A DNA stretch of 64,000 nt from Amoebophrya sp. A120 (lineage: Eukaryota > Protista > Dinoflagellata): assembly GCA_905178155.1 (NCBI GenBank), contig CAJINV010000024.1, forward strand, positions 440,689 through 504,688, given 5' to 3'. Of this stretch, positions 1-55,525 are shown piece after piece (position 1 is the stretch's first letter; the number at the start of each line of letters is the position of its first letter). Position numbers and translations under genes: made by a program. A model generated the notes under the pieces. The model ran no database searches, had not been told where the DNA came from, and saw only the letters and a list, made by a program, of their open reading frames with translations.

Positions 1-280
1 TACAGCATGACAGCATGACATCGTGTTTTCCCTCTTCCAGAGTTCTTGCCAAGCGAGTCAGGATTCGTGCAGTTTAGCACTTTGCGCGTTTACAATCAAC
101 GTCGTTGTCCAGCACGATAAATAAAAAGCCGGCCACTCGCATTCATGCAACCGATCGTGTTGACTTTCAAATCTTGCAGCAAAATATCCAGCCCCAGACA
201 CGTTTTGTGCAATGTATGCATACGAAAATAACTAGCATTTACTTCGCGTGAACACCGTTGTAAGCGTCGACGAACAGAAC

Positions 281-12478: not shown

Positions 12479-12715
12479 TATGGCATTCTCAATTGTTACA
12501 TTCTCAACTGTTACACGGATTTGTCATCCAAAATTGGCATCAGCCTCGACTTGGTCAAGGTGCTTAGCATGACAAATTTTCGAAGGGCTAAGCAGCATGA
12601 TCCTCTGTGGAAAATCTGTGATGCGAAAGCTGCAATCTTGCCATTTCCACCGTTGCCATTCTTGCGTCACAAATTCATTATAACAGTTGAGAATGTAACG
12701 TTTGAGACCGCCATA
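12479..12715. mobile_element. TIR element, family B (3' end or UTR of kinase gene)
   Basis: TATGGCATTCTCAATTGTTACATTCTCAACTGTTA ... TAACAGTTGAGAATGTAACGTTTGAGACCGCCATA; DR AATGT/AATTT. Confidence 0.88.
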
Positions 12716-15700: not shown

Positions 15701-18700
15701 CCTATTTACCTGCCTTGAGTCGTTTCGGCTCATTTTCGGCAGGCACGCATCTTCCTCTAGTACTTTCCACTACTACGATTTTGCTACATGCATGTCGTGG
15801 GTGTGGTCTGTGGTTTTCGAAGATGAGGGGTTTTTCTGGCTTCAAAGCAATGCAATAGATACAGTGGCTTTTCTTTGTTTTGGAACACATAAAAACTGTG
15901 CCTGATACTAGATGCTGTAACGCCGTCCGCAGCCTGTGCAGAGCGGCTTTTGCGCAGTCTCACTAACATGGCCAAAAAAAGGATCCAATAGGAGCTGGTA
16001 GAGATAAACATGCACGAGGTCATTATGGTATACTTATCGGCAAAACAAATGTCACCGGAACAACAGCCATGCTTTTAGGCATCTCGTCAGACGCAGAGAT
16101 CGTGACTCAAACTTCCATTTGGGATTTCACTTTTCAATATAGTGCAAAGCCCCAAGCTTCTTCTGGGATTTTACGAAGTGGTTTTGCAGCAGCTGCAGCT
16201 TCGCAAGGCAGATTACCTCGCAGAGGTTCTCTTTAGTGGGTTTTCAACAGATGAGCCGGACGTAGTTCGTCTCAGTAAAAAGAAACACAACATGCTTAGG
16301 ATGGTTGCGAGCCTCTGTGTGGGTGCATACATTGTATACTTCATTTTGATGCGAAAAAAACAGAAAAACTGCCTTCGTCGCGCAAACTGGATTCACAGCC
16401 ACAGTGTGAAGCAGCTCACCAAGGTTGGTTTGCCCCGGCTCCTGCCGTCGTGTTCCTGGCTGTCCTCTGTTGTTTGTCGGAGTGTAGTGGCCAAGCGGCG
16501 CATGTTGTCAAGACCTGTATTGTGTCGGAGGTTTTGTCGGTCTTATTCATGTGCGGCAGTAGCCTCCGCTCTCTGTAGCGGCGCGCACGCAGTTCCGAAG
16601 GGCGGTCCAGAAGCTGGGTAAAGAAGGCCCTGCGGATTCCTGGACAGGGAGGACGCGTGGCAAAATTTCCAGTCTTGCCGCCCATTTTATTGGGAGAACG
16701 CGCGGCAGAGTTCCCAGTTATTCTACGATGGCGGAGCCCAGTCAACAGGATTTTTTTTTTTTTCAAGCAAAAGGGCTCCCGCTTTCTCCCCGAAACCGGT
16801 CATGTGCCTGTTGCCCCGGGCCGGTACCTGGTGCCCTTTCCAGGTATCTAGCGGCGACCAGGCACCCGGGGCCCTGCTGGGGTGCCGGTGTGATGCTCCT
16901 GATTTAATGCTGAGCGCCGATGTATTTTCAATTGCGAAGGGCGAACACGTGCGCACGTGTTCCAACGGTTCGACAGAGCGAGCGAAGAGCGGAGAGCAGT
17001 GTCGGGAGCGTATTTCGAAAACCGTGCGCGAAGTAAAACCTATGCTCAGGGTTGTGAGAATGTTCATGGTGACAGAGCTCCAAAAAGGCCCACCCAAGCT
17101 CGGCATGCTTTGTGTGACGGCATGCGAGCAGCACGCGGAGAAAGGTTCGTGACGTGACATGCGTTCTGCAGAAAGCAAAGAGTACGTAGTAGACGCGCAC
17201 GACCCCGCCGGCCCGTGGAAGCGTAACCAACTCCGTTTGCGGTTGTGAAGCGTAAGGTAGGACTTCGCTCAGCCCTTGGCATAGCCCAAACTAGTGAGGG
17301 CCGCCTTTTTTGTCTGCGCTCAAAGTAAACTCTTGAAGCGGGGGCAGTAGCCTGCTAAATGGATATGGGAACCTGGCCACCGTTTGCATTCAGTTCGGTG
17401 AGGCGTTGGGAACTGAAGAAGCCTCTACCCCTGAAACGCACGCAGGCCCCTCAAAAGTGCGAAGGGCGTCGGGCTCCAAAAGCTCCTTTGCCTTGTGCAG
17501 TGAGCTAGCTAGGCTGTCCTTTGCAGTGAGCTGAAGCGCGTTGCGCTGACGTGAAAACCAGCTGCGGAGACAGGGGACACAAGAAGAAGCTTTTTCATTT
17601 TCAGCAGCAACACCACTACGACTGGCCCCCATCACTCCGATCAGGTGCCTGTCGCCCCGCGCAGGCGCCTGATGCTCCGGCGGGGTACCTGATGCGCCGG
17701 CCAGGTCCCTGGTGGATGCCCCGCGCAGTTACCTAGTGCCGCGGCCCGGTACCTGCTGCCCCTTTCAGTTGTCTTTTGCCCCAGTCGGGTACCTGATGCC
17801 CCTTCTGGGCACCTTGGTCGCGCCCTCCGTCAGCCGGGCACGTGAGCCAATTGCGGCGTCCGGTGCAGTGCTGGGCCCGGGCCTCAGAGGACCTATAAGC
17901 TGCGATACGAACGAGCACAGCGCTCAGGAGTGGCACAGCCAGAGCAGAGCACTAAACTGGTACGCTGGGAGGATGCGGAAACACCAAGACAAACGCAAGA
18001 ATAAGCCTGCGCGGGGGAAGAAGAAGAAAAAAGACGAGCCTGAAATAGCAGAAGGCGGCGATAGCGGTTCCGGCAACAATACTAACGATAGGAAATAGAT
18101 AGCGTCTAGCGCGTCTAGCTACCGTTTTGCCCCGTTTTGTTGGGTAATGCTACTACTACTACTCGGAAAGCGGAAAAAAACGAAGGGGGGTTTTGCGGGG
18201 GTTCGTAGGATTCCCCACGCAGGAAAGTCGCTAACTTCGGCGGGAATTCGGTGGGGAAATTTTTTGGGAATTCGGGCCCCCGGGCCTGTTTCATTTCATT
18301 CGCGTGCGATTTTGGTACCCCCCCCACCCGGGGGTGGTAATTCGCAAAACATTGCACATCGAATTAGCGACGCAAGTAAAGAGTTTTTTTGTGTTCATTT
18401 GCCCGGTCCGGGCCGGAATTGCCCACGAAATTGAACAAAAATTGCAGACGGAATTGGCCAAAAATTGCACGCAAAATTGCACAAAAATTGCCCGAGTTGG
18501 CCGGGCTGTATAATAGCCGGGGCGCCCCACCTCAAAAGGGGGGCGCTGGCATGGGCCAACGCTTGGCGGCCTCGGTGTGGCTTCCCGTTCTTCCCTTTGG
18601 CGCGCCGCCGCGGGTTGTTGTGTGGGGTATGCAGTCGGGGTCTTGGCGCCGTTCCGGCGCTTCCACATGCAGAGCCTCGCGCGGAGTGCCGACGGACCTT

Positions 18701-18762: not shown

Positions 18763-21700
18763 TGATGCCCTAATCAGGCACCTGATACGCCAATCAGGTA
18801 CCTGAAGCCCTCATCAGGTACCTGATGCCCCAGGCAGGTACCTGATGCGCCAATCAGGTACCTGGTGCCTCAATCAGGTACCTGATGCCCCAGTCAGGTA
18901 CCTGATGCCCCAATCAGGTACCTGATACGCCAATCAGGTACCTGACGCCCCAATCAGGTACCTGATACGCCAATCAGGTACCTGATGCCTTCAGCAGGTA
19001 CCCCATGCCCCAAGCCGGTACTTGATTCCCTAATCAGGTACCTGATGCCCCAATCAGGTACCTGATACGCCAATCAGGTACCTGACGCCCCAATCAGGTA
19101 CCTGATACGCCAATCAGGTACCTGATGCCTTCAGCAGGTACCCCATGCCCCAAGCCGGTACTTGATTCCCTAATCAGGTACCTGATGCCCCAATCAGGTA
19201 CCTGATACGCCAATCAGGTACCTGATGCCCCAATCAGGTACCTGATACGCCAATCAGGTACCTTCTGCCCTAAGCAGGTACCTGATGCCCCAATCAGGTA
19301 CCCGATGACCCAATCAGGAAGGTACCTGATACGCCAATCAGGCACCTGCTTCCCTAATCAGGTACCTGATACGCCAGTCAGGTATCTGACGCCCCAATCA
19401 GGTACCTGATACGCCAACCAGGTACCTGATGCCCCAGTCAGGTACCTGGTGCCCCAATCAGGTACCTGACTCCCTAATCAGGTGCCTGATGTCCCAATCA
19501 GGTACCTGATACGCCAATCAGGTACCTGGTGCCCTAATCAGGTACCTGATACGCCAATCAGGTACCTGATGCCCCAGGAAGGTACCTGATACCCTAATCA
19601 GGTACCTGCTGCCCCAATCAGGTACCTGATACGCCACTCGGGTACCTGATGCCCCAATCAGGTACCTGAGGCGCCAAGCAGGTACCTGATACCCGAATCA
19701 GGTATCTGATGCCCCAATGGGGTACCTGATACGCCAATCAGGTACCTGATACGCCAATCAGGTACCTGATGCCCCAATCAGGTACCTGATACGTCAAACA
19801 GGTACCTGATTCCCTAATCAGGTACCTGAGGCCCCAATCAGGTACCTGATACGCCAATCAGGTACCTGATGCCCCTCGTCAGGCACCTGATGCCCCAATC
19901 AGGTACGTGACTCCCTAATCAGGTACCCCATGCGCCAATCAGGTATCTGATGCCCCGATCAGGTACCGGGTACGCCAATCAGGTACCTGATGCCCTAATC
20001 AGGTACCTGATGCCCCAACCAGGTACCTGGCGCCCCAATCAGGTACCTGATACGCCAATCAGGTACCTGGCGCCCCCTAATCAGGTACCTGATACGCCAG
20101 TCAGGTACCTGATACGCCAGTCAAGTACCTGATGCCCGAATCAGGTACCTGGTTCCCCACTAAGGTACCTGATACGCCAATCAGGTACCTGGTGCCCTCA
20201 TCAGGTACCTGATACGCCAATCAGGTACCTGATGCCCCAAGCAGGTACCTGATGCCCCAGTCAGGTACCTGATACGCCAATCAGGTGCTTGATGCCCTAA
20301 TCAGGTACCTGATGCCTTTCTCAGGTACCTGGTACGCCAATCAGGTACCTGATGCCCCAATCAGGTACCTGATACGTCAAGCAGGTACCTGATGCCCGAA
20401 TCAGGTACCCGATGCCCCAATCAGGTACCTGATACGCCAGTAAGGTTGGTACCTGGTGCCCCGTAATCACGTACCTGATACGCCAGTCAGGTACCTGGTG
20501 CCCCAGTCAGGTACCTGATACGCCAGTCAGGTACCTGATGCCCCCCAATCAGGTACCTGACGCCCCAATCAGGTACCTGATACGCCAATCAGGTACCTGG
20601 TGCCCCAATCAGGTACCTGATGCCCCAATCAGGTACCTGGTGCCCCAATCAGGTACCTGATTCCCTAATCCGGTACCTGATGCCCCAAGCAGGTACCTGA
20701 TACGCCAATCAGGTACCTGATTCGTTCCCTAATCAGGTACCTGATACGCCAATCAGGTGCCTGATGCCCTAATCAGGTACCTGGTACGCCAATCAGGTAC
20801 CTGATGCCCCAGTCAGGTACCTGGTACGCCAATCAGGGAGGTACCTGTTGCCCCAGTCAGGTTGGTATCTGATTCCCTAGTAAGGTACCTGATGCCCCAA
20901 TCAGGTACCTGATACGCCATTCAGGTACCTGATGCCCTAATCAGGTACCTGGTACGCCAAACAGGTACCTGATGCCCCAGTCAGGTACCTGATACGCCAA
21001 GCAGGTACCTGGTACGCCAATCAGGTACCTGATGCCCTAATCAGGTACCTGGTACGCCAATCAGATACCTGATGCCCTAATCAGGTACCTGATACGCCAA
21101 TCAGGTACCTGGCGCCCCAATCTCTCAGGTACCTGATACGCTAAGCAGGTACCTTATGCCCCACTCAGGAAGGTACCTGATGCCTCAACCAGGTACCTGA
21201 TTCTCTATTCAGGTACTCGATGCCACAAGCAGGCACCTGATACGCCAATCAGGTGCCTGGTGCCTGAATCAGGTACCTGATACGCCAATCAGGTACCTGA
21301 TGCGTGCCCCAATCAGGTACCTGATGCCCCAAGCAGGTACGTGAGTCCCTAAGCAGGTACCTGATGCCCCAATCAGGTACCTGATACGCCAATCAGGTAC
21401 CTGGTGCCCTAATCAGGTACCTCATGCGCCAGTCAGGTACCTGATGCCCCGAGCAGGTATCTGATACGCCACTCAGGTACCTGATGCCCCAATCAGGTAC
21501 CTGATGCCCCAATCAGGTGCCTGATACGCCAAGCAGGTACCTGATGCCCTAAGCAGGTACCTGACGCCCCAATCAGGTACCTGGTGCCCGATTCAGGTAC
21601 CTGATACGCTAATCAGGTACCTGGTGCCCCAGTCAGGTACCTGGTGCCCCAATCAGGTACCTGATACGCCAATCAGGTACCTGATACGCCAATCAGGTAC

Positions 21701-22475
21701 CTGATGCCATAATCAGGCACCTGGCGCCCCATGCCCTAAACAGGTACCTGATGCCCCAGTCAGGTACCTGATACGCCAGTCAGGTACCTGATACGCCAAT
21801 CAGGTACCTGGTGCCCTAATCAGGTACCAGATGCCCCAAGCAGGCACCGACCTGATTCCCTAATCAGGTACCTGATGCCCCAATCAGGTACCTGATACGC
21901 CAATCAGGTACCTTCTGCCCTAAGCACGTAACTGATGCCCCAATCAGGTACCTGATGCCCCAGTCAGGTACCTGATACGCCAATCAGGTACCTGATGCCC
22001 AAATCAGGCATCTGATACGCCAATCAGGTACCTGATGCCCCAATCAGGTACGTGATGCCCCAATCAGGTACCTGATGCGCCAATCAGGTTAGGTACCTGA
22101 TACGCCAATCAGGCACCTGATGCCCCAGTCAGGTATCTGATTCCCTAATCAGGTGCCTGCTGCCCCAATCAGGTACCTGATGCCCCAATCAGGTACCTGA
22201 TGCCCAAATCAGGTATCTGATACGCCAATCAGGTACCTGATGCCCCAATCAGGTACGTGATGCCCCAATCAGGTACCTGATGCGCCAATCAGGTACCTGA
22301 TACGCCAATCAGGCACCTGATGCCCCAGTCAGGTATCTGATTCCCGAATCAGGTACCTGCTGCCCCAATCAGGTACCTGATGCCCCAACCAGGTACCTGA
22401 TGCCCCAGTCAGGTACCTGATACGCCAATCAGGTACCTGATGCCCTAATCAGGTACCTGATGCCCCAATCAGGTA
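18763..22475. repeat. Palindromic satellite, 20-bp unit ATCAGGTACCTGAT + 6-bp spacer (GCCCCA/ACGCCA/GCCCTA/TCCCTA), ~185 units
   Basis: Directly visible tandem array; the 14-bp core is a perfect palindrome; a 140-bp higher-order duplication at ~18961/19101. Confidence 0.98.
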
Positions 22476-23092
22476 TGGGCCACGCAGATCAACTGGCTGA
22501 CCGGTCGCGCGAGATGGTGGAACTTTTCCTCCACCCCTGCGGAGACCAGGACGCGCACTGCGGCTAAGCATTGCAGATGTTGCCGGGCTGGGGGTGTTGC
22601 AGGGCTTGTAATGACATTCGTCAGACGACGTCTGACGAATGTCATTACACGACACCTCTGGTGGACCAGGCCACGCAATGGGAACTGTCATCCACACCTC
22701 TGGGCCACGTATTTGCAATGCATAGCAGCAGGACAAGAGTCAGCCAATCACTGAAGTGGCTGGAGATGCTGAAGGACGAATGCGACAGATTCGAGATCGA
22801 CCACGGACTGGACGAAGCCATCAAAGATGTCGACCGGCTGTATTCTCGTCTGGATTTTTGTCAGGAAGGTTCGTTGCAAAACAACACTTCTGGCATGCAA
22901 GTTTTCGAGGACCTCGGCCTCGCAACCCAATTCCGCAACGCGATGCAGGAGTCTGGGTTCACCAGTTACACAGAGAAACATCCTCTCTTAGTCAATAACC
23001 AGATGCAACATCCGTTTACCTGGGACAACATGGTGGGTTCACTGCGCGATGTGGTCGCCGTGAGATGGGGTGATGTGAAAGGCATCTGGTGA
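22476..23092 (+). pseudogene. 5'-truncated family 1 gene copy A (last two exons only)
   Basis: DRSREMVELFLHPCG..HCG | insert 22565-22724 (DR GCGGC/GCAGC) | RTRVSQSLKWLEMLK...KGIW*; the upstream part is replaced by satellite. Confidence 0.75.
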
Positions 23093-24074
23093 ACAAAAAT
23101 CCTGCTAGCGAGACACGACGGTAGATATTGATCATAAGGACGCTTTCTGTTTCAGCTGCTGATTCCTCTTGCGGCGCATGGTGCTGTTTTTGAAACAGCC
23201 GGCCGTACCGCTGCGGCTAATGATCTAGAGCTTCTGTTGGCCAACAGGAGTTTACTAGTGCTTCGATGGATAGTTCCAGTTCGAGTTTGGTCACTGGATA
23301 GATCGATTTTGATGTTGCTTGCCTTGAATTTGATGTTCTGCACATCGCTATCTCGGTTGACTCAAAAAGTCTCGGTTTTATTTTCTACGTGTGCTTAGGC
23401 TTAAATGAAGTGAGAGAGTTCGTCTTCAAATCGCTTTCGTCACGAACCGGTCGCACTCGTCTTTGCAAATCGCACCCAATTTCAAATTGTTTACAGCTTA
23501 TCTGAAATCGACACAAATTGCAAATGGTGATGGAGCTACATTAAGTAATCCTCATGTTTTTCTCATTGTGTGATGCTGATGTGAGAGTCGCGCTTCATTT
23601 CTTCGTCAAAATTCGTATATACTCGTTTTCCAGGAGTGGTCAAAACGGCCTTTATATCTCAAATCGCTTCTGTCGTGTTTTAGTTTTTTCTATGCCGAGT
23701 GATGAAATTGAACAATCAAGAAAGGACTTCTGCAGGTTTTTTTGTGCGAATTTGTTTGGCACTGCCTAGAACCTAAAGCAGCCTACCAGGTCACCACCCA
23801 CCTCAAGAGGCACGGTAAAAGGAAGAAAGTGCATCGCTTTCGATTTATTTAAGGATCGCATCTCTCTAAAAGTGACCCGAAATTATCTGTAACCCCCAAA
23901 GCTGACCTCATAACTTTTTCTACCTGTTTTCTCAATCGGCGCCTACTCTCGCCGCCACTCCAACACGTCAAGTCCTCCGCATTCGACGAGAAGCCTGTAC
24001 TGCTGCCACAGCATCGACGGAACAACCGCCAGAGGATTGTGCCGCAGCATCAGCTGTACTCTTCCCGCCGCAAG

Positions 24075-26847
24075 ATGAACAACATGGCGGGCTCTCTGCT
24101 GGAGATCCGCAACTTGGTCGGGAAATCCTGCACCATTACCGTGGATACGGCCAAAGTGAAGAAGGTTGCGGATTTGTGTAGCTGGAGCATCATTGAGAAG
24201 CTGTTTGATGAAGACCAGTATGAATTGCAAAAGTATCGGGCTAGTGGTAATTGGATTTACGAATAACAACTTGCTTAGCGTTACAAATGAGCTTTGTCAT
24301 GCTTCTTCACTTTAAGCAAAAATATTTGTCGTGCATGGCTGCAATTGGTACCACTACGAATACGATGCTTTTGCACAGCATAGCCAGCTTCTGCCGCCCC
24401 TGCATCGGATCAAATGGTTCGTCTGCGCCAACTACGCATTGCAAATTATATCATGTCTGGACTTGGAATACGCGTGATGAAAAAATTTGTGCTAGTGAAT
24501 ATCGTGTAGAATAAAATCTGTGTTGCGACATTCCAGACCAACTTGTCATGCTCTGTTTACATTCCAGGCCACCTTTTGTATACTTTTACTTAGTCGAAAA
24601 AATGCATGACGAATTTTGTTAGCCACTGTTCCAGAGACCCAGACATATTTTTTACCATGGATACCACCGCAACTACGACCGTTCCAGGAAGCAAAGCGAG
24701 CAAGGACTCTGCCGCAAGCGAAGTACACGCGGAACGACTGCACGGGGACCGCAACAAAGAGGAATACTCCATCGGCGAGGAAGAGCCTTCTTCTCCCCAC
24801 GACCACTCCCCGAAGAGTAACGACGCCGGTCGTGGGTCTTTCTGCCTGTCGGAACGATCCAGAAGCAGGTCACCGCGGCGGGAACAGCAGGATGAACCGC
24901 AGATGCGGGTCGCGGAGAAGGATGAGGACGTGATTTTCGGAGACGACGTCGAGAATCCGGTTTTCTACCAGTTTGCGGTGGTTGCGGAGGAATTTTCGGT
25001 GACGTGGGAGACCTACACGCCGGCCCCTTGGGAGTCGCCCGAGGCGCCGAAAAGCAAAAGACCCTGGGCCGACTTCCCGACTGTTTGGCAGGGCTTCGTC
25101 GCGTGCGTGATCGGGCAACAGGGAAAGCACGAAAGCTGGTGGAAGTTGCACGAAGTGGGATCCTTCATCTACGACCAGTATCAAATGCAAAAATTTCCGG
25201 GTCTGGGAGGATGGAACTTGTGATGCATCCTGTAGGCTACACAAAAATCTGTGCTGCGTGATCACCTACACTTTTCTTTTTTTGACCAACATGAGCGGGA
25301 GTTTCCCATGCAGGATAGGCATGGCAGAGACTTCGCAGAATCTGTCATGCTAGGTCCTGCATTCCAGACCTCATGGGGCATGGAAAATATGCATGACAAG
25401 TCCGCAATCTTCCAGACCCAGACACTTTTGCATTTGATAACCAAACCTGGCTTGCGATGATCGACGATGGATCGGAGGCGAAAGAGATTCTAGCCAACTG
25501 CCACTTTCCGATCGGACCCTTCCCCCCGCTGGCGGAGGTGTTCGGGGACCTTCGTTGGAACAACATTAACATGTTACTTCCGCCTAAACTCTGCTTCGAG
25601 TTGCTAGACCTGCCCCTTACCGAGTGGCGCAAGCACGCGCGGGCGTCTGGTGGAAAGGCATTTACGGACGATCACAGGATGGAGCTGGCAACGCGAGTGG
25701 TGCACTACAGGTTCACACGTAAAGCGAGCGAGCACATCCATCATCATAGTCAACGTGAGAACTCCGAGACCGCGGGCACGCATGCGAAACTGTTCCGCCG
25801 GGCGTTGGAGATAGCATCGCCCGGCCTGGCATCCGTCGTAGGAATGCTGGAACCGTTACAATCCGGCAGACGCCTCCTGGAAGGACAAGAGGAGACGCCT
25901 CTTTGCATTCCGGCAGGCATGCAGGAATGCGTCAGCGCTTTGCTGGCATTCTTCGGCACGCGCGGGGAAGCGCGACACTTCTGTGACGAGTTGGTCGAGA
26001 GCGTGTTTGGGGTCGCTGCCGTAGCTGACCGGTGGCGCAAACAAGCCGCCCAAGGACTGCAGCAGCAAGTTCTAGCCGCTGCGAGGACGAGCAACGAACT
26101 GTTTCACCTGTTGCGCGAACAAGTGGAGCTCTTTCTTCTCCCGCTCGGAAACTACCAGGGCCACAGCGGCTAAGCAGTGCAAATGCGGCTCGGCTGGGAA
26201 GGTTGAGATTTGATGGCAGAAATGAGTATGAAATCGGTACAGAAATAAACGCGAAATCAGTAGCGCATGAGCACAAGAAGATTATAAATACCTGTTTCTT
26301 GTGTATGCAACAACTCGGCACCCGGTCTTCAGGTGCAATACGCACCACAAAGCGCTTCAATACTTTTCTTGCATGGCAACGTATGGCAGGGGCCGTAAGC
26401 CCACCAAAAAATACTCGCACTAGAATATAACTACAACTTTCATCCAAAGAACCTCTGTCCGTATTTGCAATGCATACTAGCAGGACAAGAGTTAACCAAG
26501 CACTGAAGTGGCTGCAGATGCTGAAGGAGGAGTCCGACAAGATGCAGATTGACCACGGACTGGACGGGGCCATCAAAGATCTCGAACGGCTTTATTCTCG
26601 TCTGGATTTTTCAGAAGCAGGTGGCTCGTTGCGGGACAACGTTTCCGGCCTGCAAGTTTTCCAGGATCTCGGGCTCGCAACCCACTTCCGCGACGCGATG
26701 CAGGAGTCTAGGTTCCTGGGTTTCACCGAGGAACGCCCCTTCTTGGTCAATAACCAGATGCTACTTCCGTTTACCTGGAACAAGATGGTGGGCTCGCTGC
26801 GCGATGTGGTCGACGTGAAAGACGGTCATGTGACAGGCATCTGGTGA
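24075..26847 (+). CDS. Family 1 gene copy B, 5 exons; possible N-terminal ubiquitin-like domain
   Basis: Open frame after removing 24219-24382 (ACCAG/GCCAG), 24433-24663 (CCAAC/CCACC), 25179-25439 (ACCAG/ACCAA), 26171-26476 (GCGGC/CTAGC). Confidence 0.85.
25179..25439. mobile_element. TIR introner, family A, present only in copy B
   Basis: Empty site in copy C reads TACGACCAGACCTGG. Confidence 0.95.
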
Positions 26848-27883
26848 CCAAGAATCCTGCTAGCGAGACAAGACGGTCGATATTGATCATAGGGACGTTT
26901 TCTGTTTCAGCCGCTGATTCCTCTTGCGCCGCATGGTGCTGTTTTTGAAACAGACGGCTGTGCCGCTGCGGCTAATGATCTAGAGCTGCTTGTGGTCAAC
27001 AGGACTTTAGCCGTTGGATAGGTCGAGTTTGATGTTGCTTGCCTTGGATGTGATGTTCTGCACATCGCTGTTTGGTTTTACGCAAAAAATCTCGGTTTTG
27101 TTTTCTTCGTGTGCTTCACTTTAAGTTCAATCAAGTGAGAGACTTCATCTTCAAATCGCTTTCGTCACAAACCGGTCGCACTCGTCTTTGCAAATCGCAG
27201 CCAATTTCAAGTGGTTTACAGCTTATTTGATATGTGGTTTTACAAATCGACACGAATTGCAAATGGTAATAGAGCTGCATTAAGTATTCCTCATGTTTTT
27301 CTCATTGTGTGATGCTGATGTGAGAGTCGAGCTTCACTTGTTTCGTCAAAATTCGTATATACTCGTTTTCCGCGAGTGGTTAAAACGGCCTTTATATCTC
27401 AAATCGCTTCTGTCGTGTTTTTTCTATGCCGAGTGATGAAATTGAAAAATCGAGAAAGGACTACTGCAGGTTTATTTGTGCGAAATTGTTTGGCACTGCC
27501 ACTGCCTAGAACCTGAACGAAACAGCCTACCAGGTCACCACCCTTGTAGACGCGGATAGTTTGTTGGATTGAATTGCCACACAGTGTTTTTAGCCTCTCT
27601 TTTCCTCAAAGGGCACGGTAAACAAAAGAAAGCGCATTGCTAATAGAATTTATTTAAGGATCGCATCTCTCTAAAAGTGGCCCGAAATTATTTGCAGCCC
27701 CCAAAGCTGACCTCACAACTTTTTCTAAGTGCCTGCTTTCTCAATTGTTGCCTACCCCCGCCGCTAGTCCAACAAGTCGAGTCCTCCGCATTCGACGAGA
27801 AGCCTGTACTGCTGCCACAGCATCGACTGAGCAACCCCCAGAGGACTGAGCCGCAGCATCAGCTGTACTCTTCCCGCCGCAAG

Positions 27884-30657
27884 ATGAACAACATGGCGAG
27901 CAGCTCTCCGCTGGAGATCCGCAACTTAAGCGGGAAATCCTGCACCATTACCGTGGATACGGCCAAGGTGAAGAAGGTTGCGGATTTGTGTAGCTGGAGC
28001 GTCATTGAGAAGCTGTTTGACGAAGACCAGTATGAATTGCAACAGTATCGGGCTAGTAGTACTTGAATTTACGAATAACGACTTGCTCAGCATTACAAAT
28101 GAGTTTTGTCATGCTATTGCAAAGGAAAGATATTATTCCACATGCATGGCTGCAATTGGTACCACTACGAATACGATACTTTTGCAAAGCATAGCCAGCT
28201 TCTGCCGCCCCTGCATCGAATCAAATGGTTCGTCTGCGCCAACTATGGATTGCAAATTATATGTCTGGATTGAGAATACGCGTGATGAAAAAATTTGTGG
28301 TAGTGAGTATCGTGTAGACAAAAACTTGTCTTGCATTCCAGACCAACTTGTCATGCTCTTTTTATATTTTTCCAGGCCACCTTTTGTTACTTAGCCGAAA
28401 AAATGCATGACAAATTTTTTTAGCCACTGTTCCGGAGACCCAGACATATTTTTTACCATGGATACCACCGCAACTACGACCGTTCCAGGAAGCAAAGCGA
28501 GCAAGGACTCTGCCGCAAGCGAAGGCGACGCGGAACGACCGCACGGGGACCGTAAGAAGGAGGAATACTGTATCGGCGAGGAAGAGCCTTTTCCTGACTT
28601 TGATCATTACTCCCCAAACAGTCACGACGCCGGTCGTGGGTCTTCCGGTATCTAATGTAAAAATGTCTGGGTCATCTGGAAGATTGCAACTCGTCATGCT
28701 AACTCTGCAGCATGCAAAAATCTGTGTTACATGATTACCAAAAGTGATCCAGTTTTGACCAAGTCGGGAGGGAGTTTCTCATGCAGGATAGGCATGAGAA
28801 AGGTCTCGCAGAAACAGAATCTGTCATGCTAGGTCCTGCATTCCAAACCTCATGGGTCATGGAAAAGCAGCATGACAAGTCGCGCATTCTTCGAGACCCA
28901 GACTACATTCTTGCATTTGATATCCTGTCTGTCGGAACGATCCAGAAGCAGATCACCGCGGCGGGAGCAGCAGGATGAACCGCAGCTGCGGGTCGCGGAG
29001 AAGGATGAGGACGTGATCTTCGGTGACGACGAGAATCCGATTTTCTACCAGTTTGCGGTGGTTCCGGAGGAATTTTCGCACACCTGGGAGAGCTGGGCGA
29101 CGGATTGGTATTGGCGGTGGCCGGAGAGGGCGAAATCCAAAAGGCCGTGGGCCGACTTCCGGAGTTCCTGGCAGTTATTTGTCGAGCTCGTGATCATCGG
29201 CCATGAGGACTACCGCGAAAGCTGGTGGAAGTTGCACGAACTGCGATCCTTTATCTACGACCAGACCTGGCTTGCGATGATCGATGATGGACCAGAGGCG
29301 GAGCAGATTCTAGCCAACTGCCTCTTTCCGGTCGGAACCTTCCCCCCGCGGGCGCATGTGTTCGGGGACACTCAACAGCTCTTCATGGGCCTTCCGCCTA
29401 AACTCTGCTTCGAGTTGCTCGACCTGCCCCTTAGCGAGTGGCGCAAGCACGCGCGGGCGTCTGGTGGAAAGGCGTTTACGGACGAACACCGGCTGGAGCT
29501 GGCGACACGGGCGGTGCAGTACAGATTCACGCGGGATGCGGACTGGTTCATCGATAGTACTCCTGCGACGAGCATGTCGTGTACTCTCTGCACGAAAATG
29601 TTTCGACGGGCGTTGCAGATAGCTCCACCCAGCCCGGCATCCGTCGTAGGAATGCTGGAGGAATTCCAATCCGGCAGCAGGCGCCTCGTGAGCTTTCCAC
29701 GACTCGAGACACCACCAGGCATGTCGGAATGCGTCAGCTCTTTGCTGTCATTGTTCGGCACGCGCGGGGAGGTGCGACACTTCTGTGACCAGGTGGTCGA
29801 GAGCGTGTGCGGGGTCGCTGCCATAGCTGACCGGTGGCGCAAACAAGCCGCCCAAAGACTGCAGCAGCGAGTTCTAGGCGCTCCGCGCAGCAGGTGTCCA
29901 AGTTTCCACCTGTTTGACCGGTTGCGCGAACAAGTGGAGCTCTTTCTTCTCCCCTCCGGAACGTGGAGGTACCACAGCGGCTAAGCAGAGCAAATGCGGC
30001 TGGGCTGGGAAGGTTGAAATTTGATGTCAGAACTGAGTTGGAAATCAGTACAGATATAAGTGCAAAATTATCAGTAGCGCATGAGTACAAAAAGATTTGA
30101 ATTCCTGCTTCTTGTTGTGGATGCAACAACTCGACACCCGGTCATCATGTGGAATACGCAACACAAAGCGCTCCAATACTTTTCCTGCATGGCAACGTAT
30201 GGCAGGGGGCGTAAGCCCACCAAGAAATCCTCGCACTAGAATATAACTACAACCTTCATCCAAAGAACCTCTGTCCGTATTTGCAATGCATAGCAGCAGG
30301 ACACGAGTCAACCAATCACTGAAGTGGCTGCAGATGCTGAAGAACGAATGCAACAAGATGCACATCGATCACGGGCTGGACGAGGCCATCAAAGATCTCG
30401 ACCGGCTTTGTTCTCGTCTGGATTTTTCTGAAGCAGGTGGCTCGTTGCGGCACAACACTAGCGGCCTGCAAGTTTTCGAGGACCTCGGGCTCGCAACCCA
30501 GTTCCGCGACGCGATGAAAGAGTCGGGAGTCAAGACTTACACCGAGGAACATCCTCTCTCGGGCAACAAGCAGAAACGAATTCCGTTCACCTGGGACAAC
30601 GTCTTGGGCTCGCTGCGCGGTGTGGCGGACGTGCCAAATATGAAAGGCTTCTGGTGA
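27884..30657 (+). CDS. Family 1 gene copy C, 5 exons
   Basis: Open frame after removing 28031-28193, 28244-28464, 28649-28922 (TCCGG/TCCTG), 29982-30292 (GCGGC/GCAGC). Confidence 0.85.
28649..28922. mobile_element. TIR introner, family A, present only in copy C
   Basis: Empty site in copy B reads GGGTCTTTCTGCCTGTCGG. Confidence 0.95.
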
Positions 30658-31538
30658 GCAAAAGTCAAATGCTGCTAGCGAGACAAGCTGGTAGATATGA
30701 TAAGGAAGCTTTTTGTTTCAGCTTATAACCCGTCTTGCGGCGCATGAGGCTGTTTTTGACACAGACGGCCGTGCCGCTGCGGCTAATGATCTAGAGCTGC
30801 TGGTGGTCAACAGGACGAGTTTAGCCGTTGGATAGGTCGAGTTTGATGTTGCTTGCCTCGGATTTGATGTTCTGCACATCGCTGTCTGGGTTGACTCAAA
30901 AAGTATCGGTTTTATTTTCTTCGTGTGCTTCACTTTAAGTTTAATCAAGTGAGAGACTTCATCTGCAAATCGCTTTCGTCACAAACCGGTCGCACTCGTC
31001 TTTGCAAATCGCAGCCAATAACTTCAACTGAATTCCAGCCTATCTGATTATAAAATGTTACAAATCGACACAAATTGCAAATGGTGTATCAAGTATTTCT
31101 CATGTTTTTCTAACTGTGTGACGTTGATGTGAGAGTCGAGCTTCATTTGTTTCGTCAAAATTCGTATATATTCGTTTTCCACGAGTGGTCAAAACGGCCT
31201 TTATACCTCAAATCGCTTCTGGTTCTGTCGTGTTTTTTCTATGCCGAATGATGAAGTTTACCAATCAAGAAAGGACTACTGCAGGTTTTTTTGCGCGAAT
31301 TTGTTTGCCACTGCCTAGAACTTGAAACAGCCACCCAGGTCACCACCCTCTTATACACGGATAGTCTGCTAGATTGAGTTCATCTCTTTTCCTCAAAGAA
31401 TACGGCAAAAAGGAACTGCATTGCTTTGAAAATATTTTGTTAAGCGATCGCATCATCTTCCTAAAGTAACTTTCGCTACCTTTTTATTTTCCTCTCTTGC
31501 TACAGGCTTTGTAATCTCGAATCGAACCGCAACCGATT

Positions 31539-34500
31539 ATGTCGTTGTTTTCGGACTGCCTTTATCCACTGCAAAAATGTCTGGGTCTGGAAGATTGGAG
31601 CTTGTGATACTGTCTGCGGATTCAGATTCTACAAATATCTGTGTTGGATGAACAGCAAGAAGAGACCAGTTCTTGGCACGCGGAAGTGCGTTTCTCATGC
31701 GTGATCAGCATCAAGAAGCTCTCAAAAAAGCTGTGATGCTAGGAGCTGCGTCACTGATCTCATGGGTTATGCAAAATGTGCATGACAAACCCCGTCTCTT
31801 CCAGACCCAGACATATTTGCATTTGATAGCCTTAAGGCGCTCCAGCGCGGGAATGAGGAGGACCTGCTGGTCGAGGAGATTGGCGAACAGGAAAACACCG
31901 GTAAAAAGAAGTATGGGAGTGTCAGAGCCGAAAGCGACAAAATCGAAACACTTGCGACGCACAAAATCGACGCCAGTGAAGCCCAGAGCTTCTCTTGCAG
32001 TCGGCGCATGACAAATTTTCCCCGGCCTGGAAGCGAATCTGTCATGCAGTTTAGGGCAATAGAGCCAGCTGCTCTCTGTCATGTTAGTCAGCAGCCCAAC
32101 ACTTACCCCTTACCAGGACTACAATCCGCCCTGCTTGCATCCCCTGCACCAGAGTCGCTTTTTGCGTGGCATTTTGTGCATTACAGATTATTTCGATTTT
32201 GTCGATTTCGATCCTGACATTCCCATAAGAAGGGAACGGAATATCCCAATGGGGGATCCAGCAAGGACACGTGCGTCCCCTTCTCGCTTATCCAGTGCAA
32301 ATATGTATGGGTCTGGAGCAATACAAGACATGCAAAATAAATGCTGGCGCTGGACCCACATACGACCCCCAAACCTTGTAATGCGTGTTGTGGAATATTT
32401 TCAAGTAGCAATGTTTCTGTGTCATGTTGCAAAAACGCAGTCTCTCATGCGTGTAAAAACCACAGAACCATCTAAAAACCTGTCATGCTTCTTGGCTGCG
32501 TAAGTACTACCCGTAGTCATTTTGTCATAATGATGCATGTATTGGCATGATAAGTTAAAGTTGCCAGAACCAGACATATTTGCCTCGGATATCGTCGTTA
32601 GACGACGAGGAGGATCAACTGCGCTTGATCAAGCAGCCGGCGAACACGGACTTTCCACAGGGGTGGGGACCGGTGGTGTACCTTGTGTAAAAACGTCCCC
32701 ACCTCCTCCTGACAGTGAACTTTTTGACACGAGAAGCCCAAAAGTTCTGGGAGTCACGCATGACAAGCTCCTCCGTTGTTCAGCGGTTTAGTGTAGCAGG
32801 TACTAGCCGTGGAGTTTTAATACCAAAGCATCTGTATTGAGTAATATTCTGTGTACACCAGCATAATATATTACATGTGCCACAAAACGACTAGAAACGC
32901 CTCCCATCGGCATGCGCATAATTACAAGTGTTTCCGTACTAGAAGCAACTCTGCATCATGACCGTGCGGGGGAGGAGGTGGGGGCGTGTTTACGCAGGAT
33001 ACGGCGCTGTCCAATTTTTGCTTTCAGCTGATCAAACATGTGGTCTCCGACGGAGCGGCTATCCCATGCAAATATGTCTGGGGCCTGGAGGAAGCAGGAA
33101 CGTGCCATGCGGTTTTTTGCATCTTCAGATAAAATTGTTTTGCATGCTTTTTGCACGCAGAGCATGACAGATCACCTCTACTCCAGGCGACGAGATCCTT
33201 TGTGACCTTGGGATACAAAATGAATCGGGCGTCTTTAATATTAGCTGATTTTTACGCAACACAGATTTTTGCCTATCCCAGAATTATCCGCATTGCAGCT
33301 GTGCATCCTTCCAGGCGTCCAGGGATATTTGCAATGCATAACCGCGTTTAATACAATCCCGTGTCTATCGCAAGAAAAAACTGATTCACTGTGAACTTGT
33401 GATGCAGAAAATGGAACACAGAACTCTTTGGCTTGCTACACCTGCAAGGCATGGGATTTTCAAGCGTGCTTTCCCTTGGGAAGCGCGCATGACAAATTTT
33501 CAGTGTCATGTGTAGCAAACTTGTGATGCAGATCCTGCAAAGTCATTACAGTGAAACAGTTTTTTCCTACGATAGTGTCAAGTGCTGCTGCAGTACGAGC
33601 CCATCGGCAATGGCCACGAAATATCAAATGCAAAAATGTCTGGGTCTGGGAGATTCTGAAACTTGTCATGCACGTTTTACATAGGCCATGATGTCTGTGG
33701 TGCTTGCCGTAGCATCACAGATTTTTCGAGGGGTTCTTGATGCCTATTTTGCATGACAAATACCGTATCCGCGTAGGAAAAATTACACTCACTTTGCTGC
33801 TCATGCAATACAATTTTTTTTGGAATCCACATGCAGCATCACAAGTTGCATTCTTCCAGACCCAGACATTTTTGCATTTGATACGACGCCCCCTGCCTCA
33901 ACTACGTCGCGTCTCGTATCATTTGTAAAAACGTCCCCCCTCCAGAGTTGTCATGCAGATTTGCAATGACAGCAGCATTTGTAATGCGCATCGACAGGAG
34001 AGGCATTTGCATTTCTCGTCATGATGTTTTCGCATTTGTAATGCTGTAAACAGGATCATAACCAGATGGATTTCTGATGCTGCTGGCCTTGCCAACCTTC
34101 ACTACTCTACGGACTGCAAGTTGTGATGCGTATCCCTGAAAAGTTTGTTCTAGGTATGTGCTGCAAGGTCCCCATCTTGACTCGGGGGAGGGGATGTGTT
34201 TACTCAGGATATGCCCGGACCTGCCGTACGCGACCGACGAATGGATCTCCACCGCGTGGCTGCTGCTGCCTATCCTCTGCAAACACGTCGAGGGCTGGAA
34301 GAGAAGGAGCGCAGCAAGATTTGTCATGCATATAGTCGCAGAGGACGTCGACGCGCATACTCTGGTGGAAATCACACAGTGACAGCGCAAGTCTTTCGGC
34401 ACTTCCTCCTGCCTATCCCGCACGGGAAACCCGGTTGGTATCAAATGTAAAAATGTCTGGGTCAGGAAGAATCCAACTTGTCATGCTGATTTTCGATGCT

Positions 34501-36607
34501 AAAAAAATCTGTATTGCATGAGCAGCAAAGAGAGTCCAAATTTTACTACACGGAAAGAGCATTTGTCATGCGGAATAGCCATCAGGAAGCCCTCACGAAA
34601 TCTGTGATGCTAGGGCATGCATCACAGACATCAGGAGTCATGCAAAATGTGCATGACAAACCTGGCAATCTTCCAGACCCAGACATTTTTACAGTTGATA
34701 GTTGGTGGACACGGCCCACGCGTGCCCACCGCCGACGAAGGCCCGGGAGGACACCGTGAGGACGATCAGGTAGAGAGTACTAATCAATGGCTCAACACGC
34801 ATGAAGTTAGTAACTAGGGAGCAAGTAGATGATGAACAAGTGCTGTCAGCTCTTGGTGTCGTGCATGCAACGGCACAACTTTTTTTGTGATCGGCACTTG
34901 GCCAGACAAGCTGCATCCTTCCCGACATCCAGAGTCGTGGACGATATTTGCAATGCATACTAGTGAAAACGCTCATCGCGGAGCTCGCGAAGCTGGATCC
35001 CAATATCAACCGCAAATATGTAGTCTGGGCCTGGAAAGTAGAATGTGGGATACTAAACAGCGAATGAGTCAGATGCATGGACTACTCATACTCTTGAGTG
35101 CAACTTATCATGACATCAAGTCTTTTGGACGTTCTTTCACACGTAGCGCACACCAGAAACTGTGACTGTTTTACATGACAAAGAGATGAGGAATGATTGA
35201 TTTGTCCGGCATGAAAACCAGATCCTACAGGAACTTCTATTTCATCGTTATTAAGTACAACATTTTTACGCTCCACTACTTTACTTATAATTTCCCGAGC
35301 ACCCAGACACGAGTGCAATGCATACCGGAAAACGAGGCGAAGTTGCGTGGTATGAATTGCAAATATGTTTCTTTGGGTCTGGAAGATGATTTCATAACTT
35401 GTCATGCAGGTTTCCACGAGGTCTGGATCTGGAATGTAGGACCACCCAGCATGACAGATTTTGCGGGAGTTCGATCATGCCTCTCCTGTGTGAAAAACTC
35501 CCTCTCCTCTTTGTCAAAGGTCAACAACTTGTGGTAATGATGGATTTTTGCACAATCCAGACTGAGCATGACAGACTTTGCACTTTTCCAGACCCAGACA
35601 TGATCATATTTGCAATGGCATATTAGGCCTCCGGGGTGCGTTCGACGAGTGGATTGGGCAGGTCGATTCCTTTATCCCACAGAAAAGCGAACAACCCATC
35701 GCAGAAAAAGAAATTGAATTTGTAATGCTGTCTTCGTCGCACAAAAAACTTTGCTTTGGTCGCTCAGCATGACAAACTTTTTCAGTAGCACCTTCCTAGG
35801 CACTAGAATAACATTGCAAACTGCGTGAAGCATGACAGAAGATGGCTCTCATCTCAATCGGTTTCCACGGTACAACAGACTCTGTTGTTCTATGAAAACC
35901 GCTATCAAATGCAAATATGTTGTCTGGGTCTGGAACAAAGCAACTTGTTGTGCTAAATCTGAATCATGTAAAGAATCTGTGTTGCATGGTTACCAAACGC
36001 TGTCCACTTTTGAATCGAGAGGCAGTTGCTCACGCAGGATAAGCATGATAGAACTCCAACTCCCACAGAATCTGTCATGCTATGTCCTACATACCAGACC
36101 TCGGGGGTCATGGAAAACCTGCATGACAGGTCTGGCACGCTTCCAGACCCAGACATATTTGCAATGCATAAACGCAACACGAGGACCACAGAATTATTTG
36201 CTTCTGGTATGTTTGTGCTTTTTTGTAGAATAACGGCGTACGGTGGGCGCAAGCAGCTGCAGACCCTGCTGGAAAAAACCATCTATCCACTGCAAATATG
36301 TTGTACTCTCGGTCTGGGAGAGTTCTTGCACCTTGTGATGTAAATTCTGAACCGCACGCTCAAAAATTTGTGTTGCATGAGCGCCACAAGCTGCGCATTT
36401 GTTGCTACGCAAGTACGGATTTTCATCTCATGCGGGATGGGCATCAAGCCGCACGCGCAAAACCTGTGATGCTATAAATGCTTTTGCGCGTACTAGAAAC
36501 CATTTATGTGATCCAAAATATACATGACGAACAAGTGCATTGTACCAGAGGACCCAAACGTATTTGCACTCGATACCAAGTCGGCGGTGAAGCGCTCCAA
36601 CCCCTAA
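31539..36607 (+). CDS. Multi-exon gene, family 2 (unknown function)
   Basis: MSLFSDCL|KALQRGNEEDLL...FPQGWGPVVLSNFCFQLIKHVVSDG...YATDEWIST...KQLQTLLEKTI|SAVKRSNP*. Inserts 31563-31828, 31912-32227, 32289-32591, 32679-33001, 33060-33340, 33366-33574, 33622-33883, 33917-34211, 34439-34700, 35004-35324, 35351-35622, ~35673-35872, 35903-36170, 36284-36575. Frame across 34270-34960 unresolved. Confidence 0.65.
31563..31828. mobile_element. TIR introner, family A
   Basis: DR GCCTT/GCCTT. Confidence 0.92.
31912..32227. mobile_element. TIR introner, family F
   Basis: TATGGGAGTGTCAG..CGACAAAATCGAAA ... TTTCGATTTTGTCG..CTGACATTCCCATA; DR AGAAG/AGAAG. Confidence 0.9.
33366..33574. mobile_element. TIR introner, distinct TIR type
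   Basis: TATCGCAAGAAAAAACTGATTCACTGT ... ACAGTGAAACAGTTTTTTCCTACGATA; DR GTGTC/GTGTC. Confidence 0.9.
33622..33883. mobile_element. TIR introner, family A
   Basis: 28-bp perfect TIR; DR CGAAA/CGACG. Confidence 0.88.
34439..34700. mobile_element. TIR introner, family A
   Basis: DR GTTGG/GTTGG. Confidence 0.92.
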
Positions 36608-53410: not shown

Positions 53411-53667
53411 AAAATACAGATGTGGAGTTTGCAGTTACTCCGTTGGAATAGTGGTTCCATAAACTACTTAGATAGTAGGCCGTTCCGAAAGATGCTTCGA
53501 TAAGAAGCCAAGTCTATAATTGCGACTAGCGCACGATGACGATGAGGTCAGGGCCGTAGGCTACTTTTGCCTTTAGGGCTCTCCTACCTCGGTGGCCGCC
53601 CACCTACCTCAGCGGCCGCCCTCTCACCTACCCCGGCGGCCGCGCGGCTAGGCGTAAGCTGCCCGCC

Positions 53668-54747: not shown

Positions 54748-55525
54748 AATCGGGGCGCAAATCAAAAACCATTCGGCGGCGCCCGGGTCCGTCAACGTCC
54801 CTCGACGGGCGGTGGGACCGCCGCCCACCTTGTTCCCGACTCTTTCTTCGTGGAAGTCGCTGCACATGTGAAAGTGTCTGTTTGTCATGCAAAAACCACC
54901 TCTAAGATTTCTCCTTCTGGAAATTGCGTTGCGTTTCTCATGGTGTTCATCCTGATCCGGCCATCGAAGGATCGACGTACAACTGTACTCGCACGGACTG
55001 CCGTGGGAGACCACTACCACACCACATCTTGGACGTCGGACTGAAACGGCGCTCGGGCCGAGGTGCGATTGCGCAGAGAACCTACCGTGGGGGCTGGCCG
55101 TAAATGACAAGGTGGGGCTACGATATGCAATTTCAATATGTCTGGGCCGGAGAGAAAAAAGACACTTGCCACACAGTTCTTTAATCTGATAGGAGGTCTA
55201 ACTTCCAAGCGCTCGTAGAGCATGACAAATCGTCCGCAAGCTGCTTGTCTACGACTGCTCTGCAGCAGATATACTATCTTTTCGCGAAAAAACCGCACAT
55301 GTTTTGCTGGCTAGTTAACACAGATTTTTGTGTGATCTCGGATTAGCATGACAAGTTCAAGTTCGCATCTTTCCTTTTGCCTGGTATAAAATTCGCATGA
55401 CAAGTTTGCGTCTCTCCGGATTATGGCATATTCGTAATGCTTAGTGGACCGGAACCCGAACCGCAACCGGTCCAGCAAACGGCGCGTGGCCCACCCGGGA
55501 CGTGGAGTTTCCCGGCTGGATCGTG

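Follow-up and report, generated by a model that had tools for sequence, protein, structure and literature searches.

Introners of Micromonas pusilla and Aureococcus anophagefferens are reportedly the subject of Huff et al. 2016. In Amoebophrya A120, the introner elements are ~240 nt long, form a hairpin, carry inverted repeats of 8-20 nt composed of TAT, seven looser bases and AAA, and lie between direct repeats of 3-5 nt (5 bp in the example of Fig. S19) (Farhat et al. 2021, PMC7789003). According to the available parts of that paper they are still spreading, with 97 identical pairs, and gain and loss are stated to be inseparable in its comparison of orthologs from two strains; the legend of its Fig. 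3 describes splice sites as variable relative to the hairpin and their border as unknown. Most A120 families have since been assigned to TIR DNA transposons (Gozashti et al. 2025, PMC12130899). In the accessible portions of that work, family 38 is listed with '5-bp TSD, TA/TA Termini', the splice sites of many families are described as taken from the target ('co-opt both'), TSD lengths called automatically range between 2 and 6 (5 in 5 of the 39 rows covered, out of 58 for A120), mechanisms vary by family, and introns resembling one another by paralogy had been removed.

Here we describe two tandem genes, each of which carries an insert that its neighbour lacks. The locus is one instance of the published phenomenon; the elements and their ongoing spread were already known for Amoebophrya A120.

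Two tandem gene copies, each with a private insert

The window, i.e. the whole stretch of 64,000 nucleotides that was analysed, holds the related gene copies listed below, the most distant of which (D) served as outgroup.

24075-26847, + strand: gene copy B, 596 aa; exons 24075-24217, 24387-24431, 24668-25177, 25444-26169 and 26481-26847
27884-30657, + strand: gene copy C, 594 aa; exons 27884-28029, 28198-28242, 28469-28647, 28927-29980 and 30297-30657
22478-23092, + strand: copy A, a third tandem copy, 3' fragment only, starting directly after a 20-bp satellite
281-4118, + strand: distant paralog D (P0004, 536 aa)

The spliced models of copies B and C are identical to P0002 and P0001, respectively, and the exons are 100% identical to database proteins labelled Amoebophrya sp. 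A120. Paralog D has seven inverted-repeat introns and one GT-AG intron, and copy A reaches neither private site. No Pfam family was found in the four B exons scanned, a scan across 5 exons gave one sub-threshold match, and an Rfam scan of the window returned no matches. The further protein relatives (P0003 and P0005-P0018) come without genomic context and cannot reveal intron positions.

Three inserts are common to B and C, as the coordinates in both copies confirm.

B 24219-24382 and C 28031-28193, + strand: shared element 1; repeats ACCAG / GCCAG in B and C; skipped in RNA-like contigs
B 24433-24663 and C 28244-28464, + strand: shared element 2; repeats CCAAC / CCACC in B and C; the intron would start with CT
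B 26171-26476 and C 29982-30292, + strand: shared element 4; skipped in RNA-like contigs; a shortened form lies in copy A at 22566-22724

Two shared introns have a repeat mismatch that is identical in the two gene copies; the repeats of the third shared intron are mismatched in each copy. Between the copies, the shared introns are 88.8, 91.7 and 90.5% identical (65/683 differences overall, i.e. 9.5% diverged) and the proteins 72%, so that the preliminary description overstated its case in calling the duplication 'recent'. Coding divergence is patchy, with dN ranging from 0.06 to 0.34 per 60-codon block.

Each copy has one additional insert, for which the pairwise alignment identifies an empty site in the other.

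25179-25439, + strand: B3, the B-only element, 261 bp; flanks ACCAG / ACCAA; intron 25178-25443 under the fitted cut described below (GT...CA)
29260-29264, + strand: empty site in C for B3, ACCAG
28649-28922, + strand: C3, the C-only element, 274 bp; flanks TCCGG / TCCTG; intron 28648-28926 under the fitted cut (GT...CT)
24840-24844, + strand: empty site in B for C3, TTCTG

Each private insert appears as a single alignment gap. At the B3 site, B reads TACG-ACCAG-[25179-25439]-ACCAA-ACCTGG and C reads TACG-ACCAG-ACCTGG, with flanks matching at 49/60 and 53/60 positions; at the C3 site, C reads GGGTCT-TCCGG-[28649-28922]-TCCTG-TCTG and B reads GGGTCT-TTCTG-CCTG, with flanks matching at 27/30 and 56/60. 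The extra DNA is exactly the element plus 5 bp in both cases (266 bp for B3 and 279 bp for C3), so the two claims of an insert facing an uninterrupted copy hold as first made. Further small indels separate the copies as well, in-frame where they fall in exons. Of the single repeat 5-mer proposed for each empty site, the one in C is exactly ACCAG, while TTCTG in B agrees with TCCTG at 4/5 and with TCCGG at 3/5 bases.

The private inserts are introner elements with a 5-bp target duplication

Elements of this kind occur in many copies across the window, at unrelated loci, with the consensus inverted repeat TATCAAATGCAAAA (TAT, seven looser bases, AAA). We compared the last k bases before each element with the first k after it. 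When only the inverted ends were used to pair 54 elements, flank identity peaked at k=5 (0.67), against 0.19-0.39 for every remaining k between 1 and 9; for 59 curated elements, after some rows had been dropped, the corresponding values were 0.78 and 0.22-0.37. This window-wide peak corroborates the 5-bp target duplication proposed earlier.

B3 has a perfect 14-bp terminal inverted repeat, TATCAAATGCAAAA (0/14 arm mismatches), and the arms of C3 differ at 3/14 positions. Hairpins are predicted for both, with z = -8.1 for B3 and z = -3.4 for C3 and 0 shuffles equally stable in either case. The inserts of 261 and 274 bp are thus MITE-like: short, non-coding, bounded by TIRs, and flanked by a TSD of fixed length with an empty site. 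They also share with A120 introner elements the host label, the TIR, a direct repeat within 3-5 nt (here 5 bp), removal at ends other than GT-AG in RNA-like contigs, copies at unrelated loci and the predicted hairpin. B3 and C3 are best explained as non-coding transposon copies with a hairpin shape, i.e. introner elements of the Amoebophrya A120 type.

Tc1/mariner elements duplicate a TA target. We considered such boundaries and rejected them: neither empty site (ACCAG, TTCTG) contains TA, and the terminal TA is therefore element sequence. An element with TAT...ATA ends sits between two 5-bp repeats where the empty site has a single 5-mer, and a putative transposase acting in trans may have made a 5-base staggered cut into which the element was then inserted.

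Element plus 5 bp is absent from RNA-like contigs

Contigs X3, X4 and X5, from one sample and classed as RNA by a program's guess, contain joints at 7/8 inserts of B and C among those listed, both private ones included, and every joint removes the element plus 5 bases. The contigs skip 266 bases at B3 (short side 211 bases) and 279 at C3 (short side 90 bases), in line with the join rule of the preliminary description. At shared element 2, the B joint is listed with a short side of only 23 bases, and the C joint is absent among the joints listed. With element plus 5 gone from these contigs, the reading frame is restored. X9 (2026 RNA reads, same species label) contributed only 8 matching reads, all of them partial and on element ends.

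Because the RNA assignment of X3-X5 is a program guess, and because the inserts are TA-bounded, one could suppose that they are excised from DNA in a somatic or stage-specific genome, in the manner of ciliate internally eliminated sequences, and that contigs lacking them are DNA. The coverage makes this highly improbable. X3 has zero depth in the intergenic bins 23400-23670, 27194-27464 and 30988-31258, where the DNA-like run X1 has a depth of 36-81; X1 also covers shared inserts 2 and 4 at a depth of the order of that of the exons, and its sequence runs on from the exon into B3. Moreover, the accessible text of PMC7789003 reports the introns as supported by RNA-seq. Removal at the RNA level is thus the reading we retain.

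A single cut position fits the joints

Only one cut agrees with each of the 7 joints listed and also with the 7 inverted-repeat introns of P0004: it falls after base 4 of the repeat, i.e. one base 5' of the left inverted repeat and four bases 3' of the right one (N-TAT...ATA-NNNN). Random cuts would be compatible with one another across the five independent sites with a probability of 0.31, only B3 bounding the cut from above; adding paralog D, whose introns come from a deposited annotation, lowers this to 0.012. Support for a single cut position that follows no GT/AG rule is modest, and weak from the RNA-like joints by themselves. Under the fitted cut, 22/59 elements start with GT, 4/59 end with AG and 5/59 with AC, and no allowed cut can give GT-AG ends to B3 (3' side ACCAA) or C3 (3' side TCCTG). 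Canonical U2 introns, which have GT/GC...AG ends and a branch point close to the 3' end, were rejected as a description, the ends here being GT..CA, GT..CT, CT..AC and CT..AG.

A stop-codon test of where the cut falls had little discriminating power. Among 43 elements with mismatched repeats, open frames were identical for every cut in 40; they differed in 3/43 without excluding cut 4, and 3 elements had no open frame under any cut. The motif GCATNAC near the 3' end, considered as a branch point, showed no clear strand bias (16 sense-only and 10 antisense-only, n=67). In the published annotation of large A120 families, AG and AC 3' ends are far commoner (e.g. 1014/3852 and 762/3852, respectively, in fam3) than the fitted cut predicts. 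The excess may stem from the aligner's choice among equivalent positions, or the cut rule may be wrong.

If the rule holds, the stem of the inverted ends would draw the exons together and cuts would fall at a fixed distance from it, so that the target sequence need supply neither GT nor AG. A modified spliceosome is slightly favoured over a nuclease-ligase route in our analysis, because U2, U4, U5 and U6 are reported as retained (PMC7789003, available text). With ends cut at a fixed distance and the frame restored, insertion into coding DNA would be nearly harmless, and each paralog could have kept gaining introns independently.

Both inserts were probably gained after the duplication

Three lines of evidence, namely paralog D, the age of C3 and the match at the empty sites, make intron gain after the duplication, as had been proposed, the better reading: B3 and C3 were probably each gained in their own gene copy. 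D is intron-free at the B3 site, runs without a break through the motif aligned as RSFVFDEIY / GSFIYDQTW, and has no intron in the exon spanning the C3 site; none of its 8 intron positions coincides with the 5 of B/C. As it is only 23-25% identical and mostly unalignable in the C3 region, D stays compatible with a different course, in which the gain of one insert, or of both, slightly preceded the duplication and was followed by precise loss from one copy through cDNA recombination or through gene conversion from an insert-free copy.

We regard such a loss as unlikely, and as likelier for B3 than for C3. Among non-orthologous elements of the window, the one most similar to C3 is the following.

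45302-45563, + strand: 241/262 identical to C3 (92.0%); perfect CAGCG repeat; unrelated locus

Its 21/262 differences are not distinguishable from the 65/683 of the shared introns (p = 0.53), so that C3 is no older than approximately the duplication. B3, in contrast, shares no more than 81% identity with the other elements of the window and has a long branch (0.16), and could therefore predate the split. The intronic repeat copies (ACCAG, TCCTG) agree with the empty sites at 9/10 bases and the copies at the mRNA junctions (ACCAA, TCCGG) at 7/10, a contrast of two bases; because the intronic copies match better, it is probable that each insert still had a perfect repeat when the gene copies split. 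Precise loss would instead have had to leave the intronic rather than the exonic base at both mismatches, take two events per site where gain takes one, and spare the neighbouring introns, which lie 165-730 bp away and are retained. Templates for it are conceivable, as the patchy dN could reflect conversion tracts and copy A was formerly a third template, but protein searches found no third close full-length protein (one search used 50% clusters, which mask within-cluster relatives).

Independent gain also agrees with the rate of repeat decay: rough models place 18-38% of elements as younger than the split, which suggests about one post-split insert per four-intron gene, matching observation. 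Tandem copies recombine readily, and the B3 and C3 sites are ~330 exonic bases apart, so both inserts might have been gained in one paralog after the duplication and then divided between the copies by crossover or conversion between the sites. We consider this very improbable: nothing in the sequences positively indicates a breakpoint, a third copy that could be informative is lacking, and the age estimate already predicts two independent gains.

Comparison with known systems

B3 and C3 resemble the published A120 introner elements in organism label, TIR pattern, direct repeats and hairpin (PMC7789003, available text), and share the 5-bp TSD with family 38 (PMC12130899, available text), although neither insert could be placed in a numbered family. 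They differ from the account in the accessible portions of PMC7789003 in that filled and empty sites occur here within one genome, the duplication is fixed at 5 bp, and one cut position is indicated. The B/C pair thus offers both states of a site in a system for which the original authors were unable to tell the two processes, gain and loss, apart. In the available texts we found no A120 report of an empty site in a paralog, nor of a cut at a fixed position; supplementary figures S19-S23 and S25 of PMC7789003 may show the position.

Whether all TAT...ATA introners here, whatever their internal sequence, are inserted by a single machinery that duplicates 5 bases, and are spliced by a hairpin-set ruler with no fixed dinucleotide at the intron ends, is evenly balanced. 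If they do, the reported A120 diversity of splice motifs and TSD lengths would be one rule blurred by annotation, and paralog pairs such as B/C would yield dated gains and a direct gain rate. If the single cut holds genome-wide, each mismatched repeat reports the cut position, and the splicing of tens of thousands of Amoebophrya introns without detectable U1 becomes testable from public reads.

Nonconventional introns of euglenids are alike in that terminal base pairing joins their ends, repeats are TSD-like, junctions are non-canonical and introns are gained at new positions; they belong to an unrelated lineage and pair through CAG/CTG at +4..6 and -8..-6 (PMC11282704, available text), whereas here, under the fitted cut, TAT starts one base inside the intron and ATA is followed by four more intron bases. 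The introners of Micromonas pusilla and Aureococcus anophagefferens are likewise MITE-like and become introns on insertion, but in Aureococcus they carry canonical splice motifs (PMC7789003, available text), in contrast to the GT starts in 22/59 and AG ends in 4/59 of the elements described here under the fitted cut.

Reciprocal inserts in two tandem gene copies

Global alignment of gene copies B and C left a single long gap at each of the two private insertion sites, and the preliminary description had placed both inserts correctly. The features concerned, in forward-strand coordinates, are:

281-4118, D, a distant paralog (protein P0004) serving as outgroup
22478-23092, copy A, the 3′ fragment of a third copy
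24075-26847, gene copy B (P0002)
25179-25439, B3, an element in B only
27884-30657, tandem gene copy C (P0001)
28649-28922, C3, an element in C only
45302-45563, a relative of C3 at a non-orthologous site

At the B3 site, B reads TACG ACCAG (25179-25439) ACCAA ACCTGG and C reads TACG ACCAG ACCTGG; at the C3 site, C reads GGGTCT TCCGG (28649-28922) TCCTG TCTG and B reads GGGTCT TTCTG CCTG. As first described, the surplus in both cases is the element plus 5 bases, and three more elements (inserts 1, 2 and 4) occupy matching positions in the two copies. The claim that each empty site holds one copy of the 5-mer is exact for C (ACCAG), but the site in B (TTCTG, 24840-24844) is one base off TCCTG and two off TCCGG.

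With the large exon of C as query, two proteins were retrieved, both labelled Amoebophrya sp. A120, and the spliced models of B and C are identical to them throughout (596 and 594 aa). A Pfam search of five exons found no known domain in the B/C protein, whose family comprises at least 17 clusters, most having only the N-terminal 80 residues in common.

Removal of the inserts from RNA-like contigs

Eleven sequencing runs matched, and none of those containing the locus was recorded as RNA. Three contig sets (X3, X4 and X5), all from one sample, contained about half the words; their RNA status is a guess ('RNA?'). X3 depth was zero in three intergenic bins where the DNA-like run X1 had a depth of 36-81. 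Aligned at 97% likeness, all three sets gave the joints 24214>24384, 24431>24668, 25173>25440, 26168>26480, 28026>28195, 28647>28927 and 29979>30296. Every one of these seven joints removes the element plus 5 bases, so that 7 of the 8 inserts are covered in this one sample. The joint of C2 (insert 2 of C) was absent from those listed for X3-X5; it is probably merged with that of B2, because the flanks of the two are the same and the B2 joint has about double depth. In X1, a contig runs from exon into B3.

Position of the cut

Where the flanking 5-mers differ, the joint shows which repeat copy is retained. Expressed as k, the number of upstream-repeat bases kept at the joint, the RNA-like contigs permit 1-5 for B1, 4-5 for B2, 0-4 for B3, 3-5 for B4 and 4-5 for C3; only k = 4 fits all, giving an intron of the form N + TAT...ATA + NNNN. 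Tested against the deposited protein P0004, all seven inverted-repeat introns of D permit k = 4, and two permit only 3-4 despite then starting with CT. Under k = 4, the 59 curated elements would start with GT (22), CT (15), AT (13), TT (7) or GC (2), and end with 14 different dinucleotides, AG in four cases. Cuts placed at random would agree with one another with a probability of 0.31 over the five RNA sites, falling to 0.012 when D, known from annotation, is added; evidence for a single rule is thus modest. Counting against it, published large-family annotations, as excerpted from PMC12130899, give fam3 3′ ends as AG in 26% and AC in 20%; perfect repeats, which let an aligner slide to AG or AC ends, may have produced this pattern. 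Extracts of PMC7789003 describe variable splice sites, with inverted repeats 1-5 nt away from them.

The element family and its 5-bp repeat

Self-comparison of the window revealed a dense family of ∼260-bp repeats. The terminal 14 bases of 40 seed pairs, chosen by eye from the inverted-repeat list, gave a profile that was scanned across the window, and pairing neighbouring left and right ends regardless of flanks yielded 54 pairs. Flank identity in these unfiltered pairs was highest at 5 bases (180/270), against 0.19-0.39 at other lengths. A curated list, which kept pairs with ≤ 3 mismatches and added ends seen by eye, held 67 entries, or 59 elements after removal of 5 mispaired entries and 3 orthologous duplicates; it shows 229/295 identical bases, but its selection favours the result and the unfiltered value is the fair one. 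The 5-mers are free to vary in sequence, and as neither empty site contains TA, the terminal TA is part of the element.

Several elements merit separate mention. Those at 7357-7591, 11004-11239, 31912-32227, 41073-41383 and 58496-58735 have unrelated interiors but TAT ends in common, and in four of the five the 5-bp repeat matches at ≥ 3 bases, pointing to a putative single insertion or splicing signal across families. A short false element start at 10180-10201 (TATCAAATCCAAAC) follows GCCGC, 22 bases upstream of a full element at 10202 that has the same upstream 5-mer; it may be a footprint, left by an earlier insertion or by partial excision. For elements 12479-12715, 36284-36575 and 59807-60059, no choice of cut leaves the reading frame open across the join; they probably lie in untranslated DNA or close to a stop. 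About eight elements split a gene at 7900-11400 that we take to be protein-kinase-like from the motif VIHRDMKAQN in its translation.

Divergence and surroundings of the copies

The copies are tandem, as the preliminary description had it, but 'recent' is too strong a word: differences between them amount to 65 of 683 aligned bases in the shared introns, 9-10% of intergenic DNA and 28 of 206 four-fold sites, with 72% identity between the proteins. Judged by this divergence, the duplication is not very recent.

Non-synonymous sites (24075-26847 versus 27884-30657) differ at about 221 of 1354, compared with 9.4% of intronic and intergenic sites, with alignment uncertain inside variable coding patches. 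Coding sites are thus changing faster than introns and spacers (Fisher p about 1e-8), and the patchy excess suggests either diversifying selection on an uncharacterised parasite gene family or conversion tracts.

Positions 18763-22475 contain 183 copies of a 20-bp satellite (TGATGCCCCAATCAGGTACC), which has a degenerate relative at 17634-17804 and runs up to the start of the truncated copy A (22478). The last exon of copy A is still open, and its shared intron has been shortened to 159 bp from 306; the database protein P0005 (171 aa, 66% to C) is probably its product. After C, the spacer is repeated once more (30990-31480), including a part found upstream of B and C, before an unrelated gene is reached near 31540; the duplicated unit was the gene plus its downstream spacer. 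A G+C-rich tandem array at 53650-54750 has periods of 20, 39, 59 and 98 bp and inverted similarity.

Gain or loss of the private inserts

The private sites could reflect gain in one copy or precise loss from the other. Copy A does not reach either site, and D is only 23-25% identical to B and C. The B3 site aligns with RSFVFDEIY of D, which is uninterrupted there; an exon without intron spans the C3 region, although this aligns poorly. Shared sites 1 and 2 are likewise uninterrupted in D, and the eight introns of D share no position with those of B/C. All the B/C introns thus either arose after D split off or have been lost from D, and the most parsimonious history is a single gain at each private site. 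D itself combines both intron types, one nested: within its canonical GT-AG intron (778-1249), positions 849-1112 resemble an element and are similar to 8129-8406.

Between C3 and the unrelated copy at 45302, 21 of 262 bases differ (tree distance 0.086). This does not exceed the divergence between orthologous shared introns, so C3 was inserted around the time of the duplication or later. The arms of B3 are perfect over 14 bp, but none of the 66 other elements is more than 81% identical to it, and its insertion is undated by relatives. Under k = 4, the intronic repeat bases still read ACCAG and TCCTG and agree with the empty sites at 9 of 10 positions, versus 7 of 10 for the mRNA junctions ACCAA and TCCGG; cDNA-mediated loss of an old intron would have left the exonic base. 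In shared introns 1 and 2 the repeat mismatch is identical in B and C, so decay of their repeats was under way by the time of the split. From repeat mismatches, two rough age models estimate that 18-38% of elements inserted after the split, and the expected ∼1 in 4 agrees with the observed count. Very probably, then, C3 was gained after the duplication, and B3 probably was; that both were, as originally proposed, is the reading we favour, with somewhat more reserve.

A possible mechanism and relation to known introners

The data show element anatomy, empty sites, removal of element plus 5 bases from RNA-like contigs and restored frames; behind the insertions, a transposase acting in trans may have made staggered five-base cuts. 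Long terminal stems are predicted in the elements, and splice cuts may be measured from the stem. Spliceosomal chemistry would be preferred over a nuclease-ligase route, with U2, U4, U5 and U6 present and U1 not detected according to extracts of PMC7789003. An internal GCATNAC motif considered as branch point had no clear strand bias among elements.

The same extracts describe A120 introner elements with inverted repeats of TAT, seven looser bases and AAA, direct repeats of 3-5 nt and ongoing spread; the elements of B and C match this description. In the excerpted parts of PMC12130899, most A120 families are classed as TIR transposons, and family 38 is noted with a 5-bp TSD and TA termini. The system is therefore already known, and the reciprocal inserts are a real, correctly read instance of it, to which we add filled and empty sites within one genome and a candidate single cut rule.
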